A stretch of DNA of 64,000 nucleotides. Source: Octopus vulgaris. Its lineage: Eukaryota. Made by a program: the position numbers and the translations under genes. The stretch is from assembly GCA_951406725.2 (NCBI GenBank), contig OX597836.1:1736001-1800000 (forward strand). The letters are read 5' to 3'. The notes beneath the pieces are model-generated. The model did no database searches and was not told the origin of the DNA. It saw nothing but the letters and a program-made list of their open reading frames with translations. This document shows, piece after piece, positions 4,103-63,195 of the stretch (positions are counted from its first letter, which is position 1; each line of letters begins with the position of its first letter).

Positions 4103-4262
4103 ATAGGCTTCTTTCAGTCTCCGACAACTAAATCCACTCGTAAGGTTTTGGTCGGTCCAAGGCTACGGTAGAAGCACCTGAACAAGTTGCCACGCAGTGG
4201 GACTAAACACAGGAGCTTGTAGTGGGGAAGTCAACTGCTTACTAGAGAGCCACTCCTGAGCC
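4103..4262 (-). mobile_element. tRNA-derived SINE family A, 5' half
   Basis: Homologous to 52358-52503 and other copies (gcttctttcagt...cgcagtgggact...gccactcct). Confidence 0.85.
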
Positions 4263-4513: not shown

Positions 4514-4817
4514 CACACCATCGGTTACGAGTACGAGTGTCCCAGTTGATACGATCGGTGGAGCAGCTTGCTAACGTGCAAGTGGCTGAGCATTCGTCAG
4601 ACATGTGTGCCATTAACGTAGTTCTCAAGGAGATTTATCATGACACACAGGTTGTGACAAGGCTGGCCCTTTGTAATTACAGCTACAACTCATTTTTTGC
4701 CAGCTGGGAGGACTGGAGCAACGAGAAATAAAGTGTCTTGCTCAAGGACACAGTGTATCGCCGGAAGTTGAACTCACGATCGTATGGTCGTGAGCGGAAT
4801 GCCCTATCCAATAAGGC
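4512..4817 (-). mobile_element. tRNA-derived SINE family C with CORE-like central region
   Basis: B-box-like gagttcaacttcc on minus strand, gtgtccttgagcaagacactttatt; homologous to 35260-35555, 53040-53249, 54660-54850. Confidence 0.8.
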
Positions 4818-8110: not shown

Positions 8111-8123
8111 ATGTATGACATAG

Positions 8124-8418
8124 TCATGGGCGTGGCTGTGTGGTAAGGAGTTTGATTCGTAACCACATAGTTCCGGGTTCAGTTTGACTGCGCGGAATTT
8201 GGGCAGGCGTTTTCTAGTATAGCCCTGGGACGACCAAAGCCTTAGTAGAAGGATGCTAAAAGAAGCCCATATATATATATACATATAATATATATATATA
8301 TATGTGTGTATGTGTGTGTGTCTTTGGGTCTGTGCTTGCCCTCACCACCACTAAACTTGTTGAGGGTGTTGCCCCAGCATGACCGCGGCCTTATGACTGG
8401 AAAATAAAATACAAGAAT
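8124..8418 (+). mobile_element. SINE family A, near full length, with internal (AT)/(GT) tract
   Basis: Head gtggctgtgtggtaag...gttccgggttcag; tail ccagcatgaccgcgg...atgactggaaa. Confidence 0.85.
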
Positions 8419-11902: not shown

Positions 11903-11913
<11 letters not shown>

Positions 11914-12134
11914 GTATTAGAGGTTGATACGGGGTTAAAACAAACAAGGAAAGACTTAATCAATACATAAAATTTTATATTTATTAAAATTTTATGTATT
12001 GATTAAGTCTTTCCTTGTTTGTTTTGCAAAATAGTGGTTTTGTCTCTAATAATATTTTATAATATTTTACTATAAAATTGGATTTAATAAATCTGATTTT
12101 TTTCCCTGTAAATTTGGATTTATTCCCTAATATT

Positions 12135-12140
<6 letters not shown>
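11903..12140 (+). mobile_element. Penelope-like pLTR-derived element with 5' inverted duplication, embedded in (AT)n
   Basis: 11985-12140 homologous to 15520-15680; perfect 41-bp inverted repeat 11937-11977/11985-12025. Confidence 0.7.
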
Positions 12141-13780: not shown

Positions 13781-15416
13781 TGAGAAGCGGAAAACCTTTA
13801 ACGGTTTAAGTGTAGCAGAGGGTATATTAACCTAGTTCCTTCCCAGCTAAAGGCTATAACGTTTGCGTATGTGAGTGTTTGTTTGTTTGCGTATATGTGT
13901 GATTGTTTTGCGGGATATAAATATATAAATATATAAATATATCTATAAATCCTTTTGATGGAGTCGTTCTTTTTATCTCTGTTTCTTTTTGGTTTGGTAT
14001 GTTAGTCAAGTGAAATGCTGCGTGAATACCCAAATGGTCAATATATATATATTTTTGTGGATTCTCTGTGCGTGTGTCTTTGTGCCTATGTACTTTTATA
14101 AACCCAAACATACACATGCAAGTACACTCAGACACACACGCGGGCAAACAAACGTATACATAGATTTATGTATAGCTATATAGAAAGACAAACAAACACA
14201 GACACACGCATGAATACGGTGAGTGAGATAAAGATCTGAGTCACTACACGCTACAATTCTATTTCATCTGTTATAAGTTGTCTGTTTTTTCAATCGTTTC
14301 TGGTCGTCATGCTTCGTTTAAACTTTCCTTAAATCTTTTCGCTTCTGAACTCATCTATCGATAGAGAAGACGTCACTCTGACATATATTCAGTTCGTTCT
14401 GCTTCTTTTTCTTTTTTTTTTTCTGCAGAGCATTTATATATCCGATATAATTCGCAGCTGCACATGGAGACGAAGTGTTATATGCAGATACAGAAGCATT
14501 CGTCCAAACATTCGTATACATATACATATACATACACATAGGATCCGACACACGCACATGTATACAAAAGTATAGGTATTGTCTCCCTCTCTCCCGCTCT
14601 CTCCATCTCTCCCCTCTCCCCTCTCTCTATATATATGCATGCATATTGTATACACACACACATATAAATAAAGAAGAAAATGTAGGGATTAGCAACTTTG
14701 ATCAATATATAAAATATATTACATACAAGAAATACAAAAATAAATAGGTTTACATACAAACACTTATACAGAATACAAATCATACCGAGAATCAAAGAGG
14801 TTAAATAAAAGTATTACAAATCCAACAGCTGTTTCTGTCGGTGCTCGGCAGTCCAATATGATATTTGTAGATGCGCGTTTGCGTGTATAAATGTGTGTGT
14901 GGTATGTATGCATATATATATAAGACGCATTCTTGTCTGTCTCCTACCAGACCATGTTCCGCCGCGTTCACCAAGTCAACTCGTTCAGGCTTAGCAGGCC
15001 TTACTGTTTTGTTTTCACCGTCCTGCTTTTGTTACCAAAATTTGGCCCTCCGCAAAATCCCTAACTTTATTTAATTTGGTTTGCGGGAGCAACTGTTTCG
15101 TCGAAAAAGTATCTTGCCGTGAATTGCTCGAAATACGGAGTAGAGAAAGAGCCGACAACTAATGAAGAGTCTTTTTTTTATATTGCTTGTCTTGTGTTCC
15201 ATTTCCATTCCTATTCCATGTTTTCGTATTTCGTTCTTCATGTTGTTTACGTTCTGTGGTGTCCTGTGCCCATATATGCATGTCTATACTCATATATATG
15301 TATGTACATATATGTATGCATGTACGTTTATATAATATTTATATTATATATATATATTTATAAATGTATGTATGTATATATATGTGTGTGTGCATTGTAT
15401 GTATATATATATGTAT

Positions 15417-15680
15417 AATATTCATAACTTAAAATTGAATAGAAGGTCTGAAAACCACCTGATGAATGTCCTTAGAAGTGACAAGAAACAATTGTAGTGG
15501 ATAACTTAATCTAATTTATATAAAATTTTTTATGTATTGGATTAAGTCTTGTTTGATTTGCATAATAGTGGTTTTGTCTCTAATTAATATTATATAATAT
15601 TTTACTATAAAATTGGATTCAATCCTAAATCTGATTTTTCCCTGTAAATTTGGATTTATTCCCTAATATTTATTATTATA
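15417..15680 (+). mobile_element. Hammerhead-bearing Penelope-like pLTR or retrozyme-like element between AT-rich arrays
   Basis: Contains the hammerhead motif; downstream part shared with 11985-12140; both copies end ggatttattccctaatatttattat followed by (AT)n. Confidence 0.7.
15455..15500 (+). ncRNA. Minimal type I hammerhead ribozyme motif
   Basis: CCAC-CTGATGA-A-TGTC(cttagaagt)GACA-A-GAAA-CAATTG-TA-GTGG: conserved core, stems I and II, palindromic stem III, GUA triplet; A.A mismatch at the base of stem II. Confidence 0.75.
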
Positions 15681-15682
15681 TA

Positions 15683-15766
<84 letters not shown>

Positions 15767-18283
15767 TATATATTCACATATATATACATATATATATATA
15801 TACACAAACATATATATATATACATACATTCATTTATATATGTATATATATATACATATCACACATGCATACACAAACACACATATACATATATACATAG
15901 ATATATATTTATATACACAGGTGCCTACATATATTCACTTGACATGTGCCAGTCGTTACTCACGTGTTGATATACAGAAACCACTGTTTTTGATTTAAGT
16001 GAATTACATCGAGTTTTAATGTAAAACCTTTTGTAGGTAATTATATCAGCATATTTTTCGTAATTCTATTGTAGAACGCTATCTGATTTTGAACTTTTCC
16101 AAGTCTCCATAATCTGCGAGTCTTATGAGAATCTGTTTTCATATAATTTAATTTTGTCTCTTTGTCTTTTCCTGCATATATTTTCTAGTCATTCTAAATT
16201 GATATACATCATACAAAACCAAAGCATTTCTTGTTAGCGTGTATGTTATTCAACAAAAGATCTTGGATAGAGAGTATTTCTTGTTCGCTTTTCGGTACGC
16301 TGACGGAAAATGGATTTCCAGTCCTTACATTTGAAAATGCTGTATAGAATACTGGCGTTAGAAAATCACGGTCTACATTCGAACACCAAAGCATTCAGTC
16401 TCAGACTTGTTGAGACTCCCAAAAATGATAGCATCTTTCGAAACTGAAGGTGCTTCTCATGGAATGGTATATTTCAAGTGGAAGAAGTTTCCTTTGAAGA
16501 GTCCGATCAACCAATCAGTAGGTGTTCAATTTATGAAGTTAAATGAAACCGAAATTGATCTAAACAAGGAAATCAAAACTGAATAAATTTCCCAAATATT
16601 GCATCGGGTTCACTTACATTCAGGTGTGTATTATCCGAGACTGCAAGAGAAAGGAGAAATCGTAGCTACAAGCGTTTTGAAGCGGACCTGTTGTATTCAC
16701 GTTTGTGAGTCTGTTTTAAGATTTATTGACCTTGGTGTCAAAACCTTTATGCCTGACATTGAATTTTCTTAGGGAATAATACAATGGTAAATTCTTCTTG
16801 CTACCTTTTGGTGAGAGATGTTTTTATTTTAACAAGACACGCTTTGTCAGCAAAGGGGAAAGTGAGAAGGAGAGAGCTAACGAAAGAGAGTAGGGTGCAG
16901 CTTTGTCTGCTACATATGGCTTGGCATTTCTGTTGCATGGCCATCTGAAATTATCTGACCAAGTGTGCGTTTAATTGGATTACATGAAGAGAAAAATGTG
17001 TTTGATTGGTGCTTTGGAAGCCAGTTAGCAAGTGATGAAGAGAAGTGGAAATTGATTGGAGGCTGCGTGAGAAGTGATGAGTGAAGATATAAAGGGCTTG
17101 ATCAAAGAAGCCGTAATTAGAGCGGAAAGAAGGGTCCAATGCCTCACACCCGATCGGAAGAAGGGGTAGCCTAATTCAAAGATAGAAAGAAGACTCAGTG
17201 AGAGGAAAGAAAGAGAGTGGAGAAGAAGGCGCAGAACTGGGATGCAATTTATAGATGTGTAATGAAAAGCCACCAAGAATGGTTTGATTAACTCTGAATG
17301 TGATGATGGGAGTGTTAGGGAGAAATGGCTTGAAATGGAGGGGAAGATGAAGAAAGAGGTTAAAAGTGAAGGAGAGAGTGAGGGAATGAAGGAGGACGAG
17401 AAGGAAAATTGGAAGATAGAGAGAGATGAGAAATAAACGGTCGAAAACAATCTAAAAAAAAATTGAAAGAATAATGCCCGGTCACATAAAACAAAGCAAT
17501 ATTAACAGCTTCAGTGATAGGAATATAAACATAGAATCCAGAGCCGTGTTGCTCGGTCTTTTGACAAAGAGTTCTAAGAGAAAATGTCATAAGCAACCGA
17601 TTAGCTGGATGTATATATATGCTGATAGGAGTTTAAAAAAAGTTTGCGAGTTAGAAGCGGTGAATGGGTAGAAAAAAATAAATACAAGTTAAATCGCTTA
17701 TTCAAACGTGGGAGTGTCAAACTGTGGGAATGAAAATCAGAGTATTATTTGTAAATTCGCGAGTCAGATTTAAAGAGAAAATTGGATATCAGGTGAGAAA
17801 TATGACGTCGCTAAATGACAAAGGTAGGCTTTTGCTTGAGTCGCAATTAATTATTAATTAAATATGTGTTATTCGCTTTTTATTTCGGCGTCAAGTGGTT
17901 TACTTAATATCCCTTGGAAACAAACTTTATCCAGTTAACGATTGAATCGTATGGAATCGATTGCTTCAATTTGATTCAGGATATTAAAGAGAGCAGAATC
18001 AGCTGAACTAAAGTAAGTTGCAATGAGACTATGTACAGGGTGTGTCAGGGTGGGGCCCCGCTGTGCATGAATTGTGCTCATGATGTGAAGGCCGCCTTCG
18101 TGGGGTGAGTTCCACGTTCTCTATATTGCGCTAATCATGTAGTATTGGGGTGACCGTGCAAAAGAAGGAAGGAAAACAGTCTGATAGCACCGAGCTTCCT
18201 ACACCGGAAATTTCTGATCATCCAACAGCTTGTGACCCACAATAAATATAATGAACTTTTTCATATCAGAGCTAGTTTATATA

Positions 18284-31334: not shown

Positions 31335-31391
31335 GTGTGTGTATGTGTGTGTGTGTATGTGTCTGTGTGTGTGTGTATGTGTGTGTGTATA

Positions 31392-31528
31392 CGAGGAGCG
31401 TCTTTCAGTTTCCGTTTAGCAAATCCATTCACAAGGCTATAGCAGAAGACACTTGCCCAAGATGCTACTCATTGGGACTGAACCAGGAACCATGTGGTTG
31501 GTAAGCAAGCTACTTACAACACAGCCTC
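31392..31528 (-). mobile_element. SINE family A, 5' half
   Basis: tctttcagtttccg...gacacttgcccaag...accatgtggttggtaagcaagctact. Confidence 0.88.
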
Positions 31529-31626
31529 ATATGTATTTTCATATATATATATACTTATATATATATATACATATATATATATTACTCTTTTACTATATAT
31601 ATATACATACATATATATATATATAC

Positions 31627-33149: not shown

Positions 33150-33338
33150 GTTCTACTCTAGGCGCAATGCCCGAAATTTTGGGGAAAGAGGTCACTCGAC
33201 CCCAGTACTTAAATTATCCACCCCAAAGGATGAAATGCAAAGTTGACCTCGGCGGAATTTGAGCTCAGAAAGTAAAGATAGATGAAATACCGCTATGCAT
33301 TTCGTCCGGCGTGCTAACGTTTCTGCCAGTTCGCCGCC
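33150..33338 (-). mobile_element. SINE family B (Meta/MESC-like central domain)
   Basis: Reverse complement of ggcggcgaactggcagaaacgttagcacgccgg...ccgccgaggtcaactttgcatttcatcc. Confidence 0.88.
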
Positions 33339-35259
33339 TTGTATACTGTAAAATATTAATGATGCGAAGCGTGAGGGGATATCACGCAAAAGTGGGAGCA
33401 GCTTTTAAGGATATAATTTCCGACGGCGGAGCAGAAAATAACAGTGACAGATTCAGTGGTGGAGTTACAAGGAAGAGAACAGAAATTATGTAATGTGGTT
33501 TATGACAGAGAATGTGTGGAATGGATGACAGTAATATCAGGCAGCAGGCCGTGTGATGGAGACCGCGATGGGGATGAGAGTTTAAGTGTAGAGGACGCTG
33601 GGATGTAGAATGAAAGAATTGTCAATGAAAGTATTCCATGCTATGTTTAGGAGGAGGAGGAGGAGGATGGAAACGAATTCATTTGTATTGTGTGTGTACG
33701 TGCGTGCCAGTGTGTGCGACTGAGTGTGCTTGTGTGTGTGTGAGAGCGAGAGAGAGAGAGACTGATGCAAGCCATAAAACGAGCTGAACATCCTCTTCCT
33801 TGTTATAATGGCATCATACAAATAAATAAATGAAGATCTACAGAAATACACTCGTATAATACATATACAGTTACCCCCCCCACACACACACATAAATGCA
33901 AATACCCACATTCACTGAGAAACAAACACACATATACACACACATATAGAATTGAAAGGCAGCATAACTCTGGTTGATCTTTGTATGTAACTGAAATCAA
34001 ACTCCCTCCCACCCCGGGGTGTTATAAATTTTTTGGATTCTTAATTCCGGAATTCTGTTACTTTCGATTCATAACAAGTCATTATTTATTCTTCGGTCAT
34101 TTCGTTCCATTCCAATTTTGATTTCAATGGATATATATTATGGTATGTTAAGTGGCACTTTCATTATTTTTCACCTATAAAGCCTAATTGATTGTTAGAA
34201 AGCATTCAGTTAGTATTTTGCTCCCCAAATCACTGATTTGCTGTTGAAAAACGATTTCACAATTAAAATGTTTATATCGTGTTTTAAAAAACACAACAAA
34301 TCAATGTTTACATAAGCGAGGTTTATGAAAAACAAACCAGAATTCATTTTAAAATTAATTTAGCAACAATTTAATTACTCCACTCTAATTCAAATAATTC
34401 TCTTTATTTTCAGTACATCAATCTCATCTTTCATTTTTTTAATAAATTTTCGAAAATTTCAGGGAAGACACTTTCAAGATTTTGAAACGTTATAGCAAAT
34501 TTTGTTTGAGTTCTTCCATTATCTAAAACTGACGACCTTCCCGACTTACAGCTGCGCCAAAATGTTGCTGCTAAAATTTACGCACAAACCGGTGCGTTGT
34601 CGCTGTGTGCTATCCAGGTTTTCTCTGCGCATGCTTATTCGCCAAGTCTGTTCCTTCTCGTTGCTTCCCTTGAACGCCTTCAGACATCCAAGTCACACCA
34701 CCATTATATATGAACGCCTCTGACATCCTTTCGTTTCAATCGCGGGGCTGATCATCTAAACCACTGCATTGGGTGCCACTTTGTTTCCATGGTTTACACG
34801 TACACACATGCTTTGACTCGTACTATTTAACTCGTGTTAATGATTTGAGCGTCAAAACAACTCATCATTAACTCCTATTAGATTCATTACAAGTTCACTT
34901 ACCAGCAGACGTGGCGCAAATTACGCGCATCAAGAGGCATGATCAAATTTTGCTTGAAAACCAATATAAAGGGAACGTTCATAGATACTTCATGGATTTT
35001 CATGCGTCAACTGTCAAGAATAACTGCAAGTTCTGTGGCAATGTGATCGCAATGTTGTCTTTGTATGTCCGCAAGTTTTGAAATGATATCTCGTGGCTTT
35101 ATTCCGTGGATTTGAAATCTTTGTACGAAACAAGCCATAGACATAAAACGAAGCACACACACACGACAAGAAGATGCACTCTCACACACTCACACAAACA
35201 CATAGACGCAAACAAAATATATATGTAAAACTACATATGTTTATATAACTATATGCATC

Positions 35260-35555
35260 ACGGCTCTCCGTCGTTTACGACGATGAGGGTTCCAGTTGAT
35301 CTGACCAACGGCAAAAGCCTGCTCGTGAAATTAACATGCGAGTGGCTGAGAACTCCTCAGACACACATACCCTCAACTTAGTTCTGAGAGGGATACAGTT
35401 TGACACAGAATATGACAAGGCTGGCCCCCCTTGAATTACAGGTGCTGTTCCTATTTGCCAGCTGAGTGGACTGAGGCAGCGAGAAATAAAGTGTCCTACT
35501 CAAGGACGCAAATAACCACGCGGTATCGAACTCCAGGATACCATTTAGTCAATGC
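35260..35555 (-). mobile_element. SINE family C
   Basis: Colinear with 4512-4817. Confidence 0.85.
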
Positions 35556-40236: not shown

Positions 40237-40444
40237 AAAATTTTGGAACAGGGGCAGTGGTTCGAGCACGGAGAGGTAAGTCGATGTCCTCGACCCCAGT
40301 GCTCCATTGGTATTTATTTCATCGACCCGGAAAGGATAAATTACAAAGTCGACGTCTGCAGCATTTGAACTCAGAACTTAAAGAAGGACGAAATACCGCA
40401 AAGCATTTTGTCCGGCGTGCTAACGATTCTGCCAGCTCGTCGCC
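40237..40444 (-). mobile_element. SINE family B
   Basis: Colinear with 33150-33338. Confidence 0.88.
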
Positions 40445-40552
40445 TTAGATTTTCTTATAAGGAAAATATGTGAAAAATATGAGATATACCAGTTATTTTA
40501 AGTTATACTGGTGTACGAGAAGATGCTGGAAAGTTCCAGGCTTAGCTTTCCG

Positions 40553-44778: not shown

Positions 44779-45356
44779 CCTGTTATATTTGTATCCTGTT
44801 AAATCTTATATCGATCCCCAGGGTTCCTATAGACACTGGTTGAAAACCAGTGGTTTAAACCACTGAAGATGGTGTTCCATCACCGCAATTCAAACACACA
44901 AAAAAAATTTTTTTTTATAAAAAAAGAACAGAAAAAAACAAGGGACCGGGGATCAACATGCACATCTGCACACGCGCAAATACATACATACATACCTAGG
45001 CATACACAAACGCATGGATGTACTGGCGGGGTGGTAGGCATTATGTAGCTTCAGTACTTCGTTATTGAGGGCTTCACACTGTCACACACTTGATATAAGT
45101 GGGTTTGACCCTTTAGTTAATAATCCGGAATTTGTAAAAAGATGGCGGATGACATGTTCGTTGCTACGACGTCGGGGAAAAATCCATTGAGAACATGCAT
45201 GAGGTAAGAAATATATTGAATAGAAGATCTGCTGAGCATTCACATCGATACATTTACATTAGTAGCAGCAGCAGCAGCAACATCAGCAACAGTAGCCGCA
45301 ACAATAACGGCAGCTGCAGGAACAGTAGTAGTAGTAGTAGTATTAGTATTAGTAGA

Positions 45357-46455: not shown

Positions 46456-46458
<3 letters not shown>

Positions 46459-46618
46459 GACGGGCTTCTTTCAGTTTCTGTTACCAAATCCACTCAGAAT
46501 ATTTTGGTTGCCCCAAGGCTATAATATAAGACACTAGCCCAAGGTGCCACGCAGTGAGACTGAACCCGGAACCATGTGGTTGGGAAGCAAGCTTCTTTCC
46601 ACGCAACCACCCTTGTGC
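46456..46618 (-). mobile_element. SINE family A, 5' half
   Basis: cgacgggcttctttcagtttc...cccaaggtgccacgcagtgagactgaacccggaaccatgtgg. Confidence 0.9.
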
Positions 46619-52117: not shown

Positions 52118-52503
52118 TCTTTACTCTTTTACTTGTTTCAGTCATTTGACTGTGACCATGCTGGAGCACCGCCTTTGGTCGAGCAAATCAATCCCAGGAC
52201 TTATTCTTTGTAAGCCTAGTACTTATTCTATCACTCTTTTTTGCCGAACCGCTATGTTACGCGGACGTAAACATACCAGCATCGGTTGTCAAGCGATGTT
52301 GGGGGACAAACACAGACACAAACATATACACACGCATACATATATATACATATATATGACGGGCTTCTTTCATTTTCCGTCTACCAAATCCACTCACAAC
52401 GCTTTGGTCGGCCCGAGGCTATAGAAGAAGATACGCAGTGGGACTGAACGCGGAACCATGTGGTTGGTAAACAAGCTACTTACCACACCGCCACTCCTAC
52501 ACC
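52118..52503 (-). mobile_element. SINE family A, full length
   Basis: Head, internal CA/TA tract, body and tail (tactcttttacttgtttcagtcatttgactg) all present. Confidence 0.92.
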
Positions 52504-52769
52504 TGAGAATTTTGCAATTCAATTGGCTATATTTTTGCTGTTTTCCCTATAATTCGAATTTAAATCTGTTTTTAAGTTCAAAGTATTACAGTAATACTTC
52601 AAAACTGTTGACGACCCTTGGATATTACTGGTATTAGAAATTTCCTCATTTCTGTGTGAATAACTTCATAGATGTTCATATACTTGTTTCGTTATACTTA
52701 TTCAACAATATGTCAGTGTTAAATGTAAAATACATTACTCGTCTTCTTACAATGTTGTAACAAACGAGA

Positions 52770-53001
52770 GGCGGCGAGTTGGCAGAGACGTTAGCACGAC
52801 GAAATGCTCAGCAGTATTTCGTCTGCCACTACGTTCTGAGTTCAAATTCCGCCGAGGTCGACTTTGCCTTTCATCCTTTCGGGGTCGATAAATTAAGTAC
52901 AAGTTACGTACTGGGGGTCGATGTAATCGACTTAATCGGTTTGCCTGACCTTGCTTGTCCTCTCTGTATTTAACCCCTTGTGGGTAGTAAAGAAATAGGT
53001 A
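52770..53001 (+). mobile_element. SINE family B, full length
   Basis: B-box gagttcaaattcc; central gtcgactttgcctttcatcctttcggggtcgataaattaagtac. Confidence 0.92.
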
Positions 53002-53039: not shown

Positions 53040-53249
53040 CTCTTTCTTCCTGTTTCTATAATACCTGTATTTTAAATGGCCAGCCTTATCACACTCTGAG
53101 TCATGCTGAATCTCCCAGGGAACTAAGTTAAGGATGCACGTGTCTGTGGAGTGCTCAGGTACTTACACGTTAATTTCACGAGCAGGCTGTTCCGTTGATC
53201 GGAATCGGATCTAATGGAACCCTCGTCCCCCGTCATCGACGGAGTGCCA
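53040..53249 (+). mobile_element. SINE family C, 3' part
   Basis: Reverse complement of the 35260-35440 segment. Confidence 0.85.
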
Positions 53250-53334
53250 TGATGTACAAATATATATATATATATATACATATATGTATATGTATGTTCA
53301 TATATAGGCGCAGGAATACCTATGCGGTAAGTAC

Positions 53335-54397: not shown

Positions 54398-54547
54398 AGG
54401 GGCTTCTTTCAGTTTCCGTTTACAAAATGCATTCACAAGGCTTTGGTCGGCCCGAGGCTATTGTACAAGCAGGAAGGCAAGCAGTGGGACTGAACCTAGA
54501 ACCAAATGTTTCGGAAGCATGGTTTTTACCACACAGCCACGCCTGCC
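54398..54547 (-). mobile_element. SINE family A, 5' half
   Basis: gggcttctttcagtttccg...ggctttggtcggcccgaggcta. Confidence 0.88.
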
Positions 54548-58754: not shown

Positions 58755-59025
58755 CTCATTTTACTCTTGTACCTGGTTCAGTCATTTACCTGCGGGAATG
58801 GTAGAGCACCACCTTTAATCTGAAAAAATTGATGCCCCGGACATATTCTTTGAAATCCAAGTACTTATTCTGTCAGTTTCTTTGGCGGAACCGCTACGTT
58901 ACCTGGAAATACACCAGCATCGGTCGTCAAGCAATGATGGCGGAAAAACATAGACATACAACGAAACACAGACACACAGAGACACAGACACAGGCACACA
59001 CAGACACGCATACATACACACACGC

Positions 59026-59066
<41 letters not shown>

Positions 59067-59228
59067 GACGAGCTTCTTTCAGTTTCTGTCTGCTAAATAC
59101 AATCACAAGGCTTTGGTTGGCTCGTAATTATAATAGAATAGACACTTGTGCAAAGTGCCACGCAGTAGGGCTGAACCCGGAAACATATGGTTGGGAAGTA
59201 AGAGTCTTACCTCACAGCCACTCCTATG
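58755..59228 (-). mobile_element. SINE family A, full length with expanded internal microsatellite
   Basis: Colinear with 52118-52503. Confidence 0.88.
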
Positions 59229-59244
59229 CATGCATACATATGTG

Positions 59245-62983: not shown

Positions 62984-63195
62984 GGCGGTGTGGTAGCGGA
63001 ATCGTTAGCAACACCATACAAAATGTGCTGAGCTGGTAAAATCGTTAGAAGCATTTCGTCCGTCTTTACTTTCTTACAACAAATTCCGCCGAGGTCGCCT
63101 TTGCGTTTAATCCTTCGGGGTCGATAAATTAAGTAGAAGTGTAACACTGGGATCGATGTAATCCACTGGTCCCCTCCCACAAAATTGCACGCCTA
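62984..63195 (+). mobile_element. SINE family B
   Basis: ggcggtgtggtagcggaatcgttagca...aaattccgccgaggtcgcctttgcg...ggggtcgataaattaagta. Confidence 0.88.

Follow-up and report, generated by a model that had tools for sequence, protein, structure and literature searches.

Copy A of a high-copy repeat, 252 bp long with a GC content of 24% (15421..15672, plus strand), is probably the 5′-truncated 3′ end (pseudo-LTR plus tail) of a very abundant (TA)n-targeting Penelope-like element (PLE); at 15455..15500, copy A bears a minimal type I hammerhead ribozyme motif that is conserved in the family. All coordinates refer to the window, i.e., the whole 64-kb stretch of Octopus vulgaris DNA that has been analysed. 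The repeat has been recognized from contig depth, from a second copy within the window and from its GC content. It is an element of a known kind, to which the family adds a member; hammerheads in PLE terminal repeats have been described as near-universal, thousands of them as solitary remnants, and the present case goes little beyond annotation in this respect.

The Hammerhead Motif

The first-pass annotation had claimed a hammerhead with a complete core, two short stems, a palindromic third stem and a GUA triplet, and every one of these parts has been confirmed in the sequence. Stem I (4 bp, 15455-15458/15497-15500) is followed by the first box of the catalytic core, CUGAUGA (15459-15465), by the stem II region (15466..15484) and by a segment (15485..15496) that holds the GAAA box (15485-15488), the 8-nt palindrome of stem III (15488-15495) and the GUA triplet (15494-15496), with the predicted cleavage site between 15496 and 15497. 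All of these lie on the plus strand. Stem II consists of a 4-bp helix (15467-15470/15480-15483) with a variable 9-nt loop, and underneath it A15466 (position 10.1) stands opposite A15484 (position 11.1, A or C in the family) as a 1x1 mismatch. The core boxes CUGAnGA and GAAA, a NUH triplet and three helices in type I order are thus present, and the usual base pair between 10.1 and 11.1, which is mostly G-C, is absent, its place being taken by A.A or, in part of the family, by A.C.

The two strands of the window together contain 24 CUGAnGA cores, of which the motif at 15455-15500 alone satisfies a descriptor for type I hammerheads that asks for the core, a stem II of 4 bp, GAAA, a stem III pair, UH and a stem I of 4 bp. 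Dinucleotide shuffles of the 64-kb window contain a match in 5 of 1000 cases, a frequency of 0.005 that is a lower bound on chance, since the descriptor was drawn up after the motif was known and tolerates a 1-nt mismatch. The Rfam scan has given no hammerhead match at E<=10, its only output being microsatellite-driven miRNA and snoRNA noise.

Structure of the Repeat and Its Ends

The motif sits 34 nt inside copy A, near the 5′ start. Tandem Repeats Finder marks a (TA)n-rich microsatellite on the left (15292..15420) and a (TA)n microsatellite on the right (15666..15915), both of which are regarded as insertion target. Just 3′ of the cut site, an imperfect AU-rich hairpin is predicted on the plus strand (15504..15547, fold z -4.26) that none of 200 shuffles equals in stability, and its apex is the fold-back point of copy B as judged from the alignment. 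The 3′ terminus of copy A is formed by an optional tail of ~76 nt (15597..15672, plus strand), in which two related ~37-nt units follow each other (repeat family D11, spacing 37/36, supported by the alignment).

To describe the family as a whole, we have used contigs from four public runs (X1, X4, X15 and X16), in which contigs of the repeat span 50-280 letters and variants are listed at at least 4% of depth. The repeat stretch or part of it is contained in 20 of 24 listed public runs with five organism codes, and 1,679 (X1), 1,859 (X4), 154 (X15) and 33 (X16) related contigs have been placed on it. Among the contig ends listed, beyond which there are 122 more loose ends, 30 in X1, 40 in X4 and 7 in X15 pass from the element into (TA)n at 15596, and further ones run into AT-rich repeat or (TA)n at 15670. 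The two 3′ ends, 15596 and 15670, correspond to family members without and with the 2x37-nt tail ahead of (TA)n. The original proposal that the motif resides in a microsatellite-dwelling retroelement is supported by these data, as copy A lies between (TA)n tracts and the ends of its family enter (TA)n.

Family depth begins at 15421 and is strongly biased towards the 3′ end, being 38-fold (X1), 43-fold (X4), 43-fold (X15) and 24-fold (X16) higher over 15556-15654 than over the ribozyme; summed contig depth is a proxy and not a copy number, and the four runs agree in the direction of the bias. The step in depth appears at 15547, partly as an alignment effect caused by 5-nt indels at 15505-15508 and 15548, and it may truly lie anywhere within 15497-15547. 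Strong 5′ truncation of dispersed copies, a PLE trait, is accordingly visible in the 24-43-fold bias and in the truncation of both window copies, and insertion into (TA)n, a trait of the Hydra clade, in both window copies and in the loose ends of contigs.

Further PLE traits have been found in copy B (11904-12140), which is 5′-truncated and carries a perfect 42-bp inverted arm. Its forward arm (11979..12140, plus strand, 89% identity over 195 columns of the alignment) starts within the hairpin at the equivalent of 15514, has no ribozyme, retains the full tail and ends in (TA)n. The inverted 5′ arm (11904..11977, minus strand, fold -55.3 kcal/mol, z -17) begins with 42 bp that mirror the forward arm perfectly, continues with 14 unlike bases and then with family sequence that stops, tailless, at the equivalent of 15596 and gives way to (TA)n. 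The other strand of the 14 unlike bases (11922-11936) loosely resembles the segment that they replace, perhaps as the result of a micro-inversion. An inverted, 5′-truncated copy adjoining the 5′ end, together with a tail at one end only, is how the description of PLEs in Craig et al. (2021, PMC8557442) reads, and copy B displays both, with the difference that the tail measures ~76 nt in the octopus repeat as against 30-40 bp published for PLEs. Inverted arm, one-sided tail, 3′ bias and (TA)n ends are hallmarks of PLEs and not of retrozymes.

The boundary at 15421 is the point on which the leading alternative turns. It holds that the repeat is a self-contained, non-autonomous element of ~250 nt derived from a PLE end, with the ribozyme at its head, which would depend on read-through for its transcription and on a PLE enzyme acting in trans for being copied into (TA)n. 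The boundary indeed recurs, both as the start of family depth and in one X4 contig whose joint to 15421 contains 15 inserted letters mirroring the first bases of the element, i.e., an inversion apex at the 5′ boundary; moreover, no ORF has been found in or beside copies A and B. However, the reference sequence stopped at the boundary of copy A, so that longer copies would be invisible in the contig data, and an X16 contig with 89 extra letters 5′ of 15430 as well as an X1 contig with 30 extra letters 5′ of 15443, both unlike the window, indicate that some family copies have a different upstream sequence. Solo truncated ends are, in addition, the usual state of PLE hammerheads according to Cervera and De la Pena (2014, PMC4209133). 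We consider a self-contained unit unlikely on this balance, the truncated end of a longer PLE being the simpler reading of copy A. The same low expectation attaches to the more elaborate proposal that the 252-nt unit is a hugely amplified, hammerhead-headed octopod mini-element which borrows a Penelope enzyme, cleaves as a dimer despite A.A/A.C, and in which the hairpin sets the stop of reverse transcription and the fold-back. If true, a mini-element of this kind would be a tractable model for the building of PLE inverted ends.

A metazoan non-LTR retrozyme, which the first-pass annotation had mentioned beside PLEs, would be made of short tandem repeats from which hammerheads release monomers that circularise and re-insert. 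Its size range of 150-450 bp at low GC accommodates the 252 bp and 24% GC of copy A, weak helix III and a helix II base mismatch are common to both (Cervera and De la Pena, 2020, PMC7229834), and the axolotl ribozyme HHR_Amex2, whose stem III is 2 bp long and which combines a tetraloop with a mismatch at the helix II base, is reported in the same paper to cleave. The octopus repeat, in contrast, has been found without tandem arrays, and its contigs, which can show presence but not absence, contain no 3′-to-5′ head-to-tail joint in the four runs. Its 3′ ends run into (TA)n, its depth is biased to the 3′ side, both window copies are single, and the inverted 5′ arm, the optional tail and the 5′ truncation are traits of PLEs; the 4-bp stem I without evident contact between loop 1 and loop 2 furthermore makes for a minimal and not a canonical ribozyme. 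The retrozyme reading is largely refuted by the contig joints, and we give it very little credence. A joint of 15493 to 15447 in X16 (one contig, depth 2.8) has been set aside as a possible error. Contigs that span the cut site are present in X15 and X16, the RNA nature of which is presumed only, and they are uninformative on cleavage or expression; none of the listed runs that contain the repeat is recorded as RNA.

Family-Wide Variation of the Motif

Six positions of the 46-nt motif are variable in the four runs: three in loop II (15472, 15474 and 15479) and the single positions 15484, 15490 and 15493. None of the six falls among the 29 constrained positions of the core and of stems I and II (rough P 0.0013), and thus the first box is free of variants at at least 4% of depth, and the stem II region varies only in its loop and at 15484. 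A family consensus that fails to conserve core or stem pairing had been named, together with a lack of cleavage by consensus monomer and dimer, as evidence against a ribozyme; what the four runs contain is a core and stems I and II without listed variation. These family data support the motif more strongly than the descriptor and the monomer fold do. No variant is listed for the preceding 34 nt either, and the invariance of the motif may therefore be due in part to little divergence or to variants being missed towards the ends of contigs.

Within the palindrome, 15490 and 15493 co-vary at identical depth, with 9 contigs in X1, 8 in X4, 1 in X15 and 0 in X16, and the coupled change preserves the self-complementarity of stem III. 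It is one event that has been inherited by a subfamily, not many events, and it could alternatively have originated from template switching at the DNA level within the palindrome. Read as compensation, the coupled change provides evidence from nature that a dimeric stem III is under selection, with template switching as the alternative.

The mismatch underneath stem II had originally been taken as a defect that may weaken this particular copy. No variant of A15466 is listed in any of the four runs, and 15484 is A in ~99% of the depth in X1 and ~60% in X4, otherwise C (<1% in X1, 40% in X4, 35% in X15 and 85% in X16), and never the pairing U at 4% of depth or more. Since A15466 is invariant and 15484 is A or C, A.A is the main state of the family with A.C as an alternative, and it is not a decay of copy A; the suspected weakening of copy A relative to its family does not hold. 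If cleavage is real, the presence of A.A/A.C at 10.1/11.1 across the family would widen the range of mismatches known to be tolerated next to the core.

Predicted Folding of Monomer and Dimer

The 46-nt monomer has a predicted energy of -4.3 kcal/mol and a folding signal no better than that of shuffles (z 0.56). When two 46-nt copies are co-folded without constraints, a double hammerhead results at -18.8 kcal/mol, as compared to -4.3 per monomer, and the pairs of stem I (4/4), stem II (4/4) and stem III (8/8) are recovered, with -6.4 kcal/mol predicted for the intermolecular 8-bp stem III duplex. The palindromic helix III thus forms the double hammerhead in silico, as is characteristic for PLE minimal hammerheads. 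The fold is retained with 5 flanking bases per side; stem I is lost (0/4) with 15 or more, and all three stems are lost with the full flanks. The double change at 15490 and 15493 strengthens the predicted double hammerhead to -22.4 kcal/mol, and of the two single changes, one makes it less stable (-18.2), and with the other the fold no longer forms. Co-fold and compensatory change together support, on the level of prediction, the initial idea of a PLE-type minimal type I hammerhead that works as a dimer through its palindromic stem III. A chance look-alike or decayed relic without selection on RNA structure, to which the lack of an Rfam match, the unremarkable monomer fold, the equally invariant upstream 34 nt and the misfolding of longer contexts would be congenial, is highly improbable in view of the few shuffles that match the descriptor, the variation that spares the 29 constrained positions, the compensatory change in the palindrome and the location of the motif near the 3′ end, in sense orientation, of a retroelement with PLE traits.

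Comparison With Known Hammerhead Systems

Among the systems described so far, the minimal hammerheads in the pseudo-LTRs of PLEs (Cervera and De la Pena, 2014, PMC4209133) share with the octopus motif the type I topology, the 4-bp helix I, the palindromic helix III that is predicted to need a dimer, and the occurrence mostly as solitary truncated copies. According to that work, motifs of this type are inactive as monomers and weakly active as dimers, and are mostly solitary remains of truncated PLEs; the dimer model is summarised in a review (PMC6765202). The minimal hammerheads depicted there (PMC4209133) differ, however, by a 9a bulge and G10.1-C11.1, neither of which is present in the octopus motif, and by a helix II of 7-8 bp as against 4 bp over A.A/A.C; a further difference is that no linked ORF has been found for the octopus repeat.

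The resemblance is closer to the hammerheads of the Hydra clade of PLEs (Craig et al., 2021, PMC8557442, Files S1 and S2), which likewise combine (TA)n targeting (24 of the 27 Hydra rows listed in File S1, or all but one, are marked (TA)n) with a sense-strand ribozyme near the 3′ end, GUA or GUU triplets and, in 15 of 25 families, a 1x1 mismatch beneath a helix II of 4 bp. As counted from File S2, the mismatch at 10.1/11.1 is U.U in 14 of these 15 families and U.C in one, and A.A occurs in 0 of the 25, in contrast to A.A/A.C in the octopus family. A natural U10.1-U11.1 has been reported as the best-tolerated mispair (Perreault et al., 2011, PMC3088659), and together with the absence of A.A from the 25 Hydra families this suggests that the activity of the octopus motif may be low. 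The hammerhead of Hydra-1_Obim from Octopus bimaculoides is a different sequence (PMC8557442). The likeness to Hydra is drawn from the motif and from (TA)n and makes membership in this clade, whose protein marks are RWK, DKT, a CxCX5C linker and the lack of CCHH, no more than a possibility, as Neptune and Naiad favour microsatellites as well; an origin from Naiad has been dropped, as Craig et al. describe Naiads as being without canonical hammerheads. In O. vulgaris, 190 PLE families have been reported, which together account for 6.83% of the genome (PMC13282606).

Proposed Origin of Copy A and Copy B

Following published PLE biology, a master element with reverse transcriptase (RT) and GIY-YIG domains would be transcribed from tandem pseudo-LTRs. 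In the tandem precursor RNA, two hammerheads could swap strands via the 8-bp intermolecular stem III, and the paired hammerheads would cut after GUA, by which unit-length RNA would be freed. The master enzyme would nick (TA)n and prime reverse transcription at the 3′ end of the element, and synthesis would mostly stop within ~130-170 nt, such that perhaps a few percent of the copies reach the ribozyme. Copy A would be one of the few that extend past it, and as its sequence continues across the cut site, its template would have been uncut there. For copy B, the mirror arm suggests that the cDNA folded back or switched template at the AU-rich hairpin. The predicted cut takes place only when two copies pair via stem III, and the nearest ribozyme of the same family lies outside the window, so that the ribozyme of the solitary copy A is probably inert and silent.

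Search for a Coding Partner and Longer Copies

An autonomous partner with RT and GIY-YIG, as anticipated in the first reading, has turned up neither among the window ORFs scanned nor in the DNA scans for a longer copy. Within the 145 of 267 low-repeat window ORFs that were scanned against Pfam, there is no relevant match to RT or GIY-YIG and one sub-threshold match, and the six-frame translations beside copy A contain no remnant of either domain. Viral contigs yielded 0 longer copies (14 loci shared only a 16-mer and were unrelated beyond it), prokaryote genomes likewise 0, and a phage BLAST gave 7 weak chance matches. In metagenomes 2 loci were retrieved, one of them bacterial-looking with only 21 bases in common. 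This stretch (L001 50-130 and L002 5021-4940, minus strand) is intergenic, lies upstream of an ORF, shares the 21 bases with the head of the element and then has a G-C-closed long stem of its own, GAAAC and GUA, similar to a hammerhead core; neither a stem I nor an Rfam match has been found for it. The resemblance is taken as chance, and the stretch could be an unrelated hammerhead variant.

On the plus strand, an open frame of 25 codons (15420-15497) runs through the ribozyme with a stop codon straddling the predicted cut site, and it includes a hexapeptide resembling the terminal LN[K/S]R motif of the Hydra endonuclease. The possibility that a PLE ORF end overlaps the ribozyme has been rejected, for in this frame each of the six variants that the family has within the motif would change an amino acid or introduce a stop codon; a protein search with a 40-residue stretch of the frame gave no candidate, which is weak evidence. 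The family sequence has not been found in print in full texts or supplements, where FASTA line breaks can hide a text match, and the family may already be present in Repbase, in Dfam, in the repeat library of O. vulgaris, in the supplement of Cervera 2014 or in the alignments of Lunse et al. 2017.

Among the parts of the window that were searched, the best of 4 protein matches is to an Octopus bimaculoides protein at 67% identity. It belongs to an open frame of 181 aa on the plus strand (1960-2505), which is 67% identical to LOC106878562 and has no Pfam match. Its CxxC..H and RHD-like words may be akin to the C-terminal region of non-LTR retrotransposons with a restriction-like endonuclease.

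Other Features of the Window

A second hammerhead-like half has been noticed on the minus strand at 14730-14851, with GAAA, an 8-nt palindrome and a GUU triplet at 14835. Its first box, at 14851, is degenerate, neither stem I nor stem II is paired, and an AT-rich tail comes thereafter; it is possibly the decayed end of another PLE family. On the plus strand at 44780-44900, a CUGAAGA core at 44863 is followed by a short hairpin without GAAA, with two short palindromes upstream and (TA)n adjoining, which is possibly another decayed PLE end. The segment 40952-41262 is an imperfect inverted repeat of itself over ~310 bp (70% identity, E 5e-30) and resembles a MITE-like or fold-back insertion. Dispersed repeats of at least three further families, with SINE-like sizes of 130-190 bp and identities of 70-84%, populate the window: the first at 33205-33340, 40277-40446, 52769-52934 and 63039-63167, the second at 4106-4257, 8111-8243, 31391-31536, 46458-46618, 52120-52499, 54400-54544 and 58760-59239, and the third at 4572-4752, 35256-35533 and 53062-53254.
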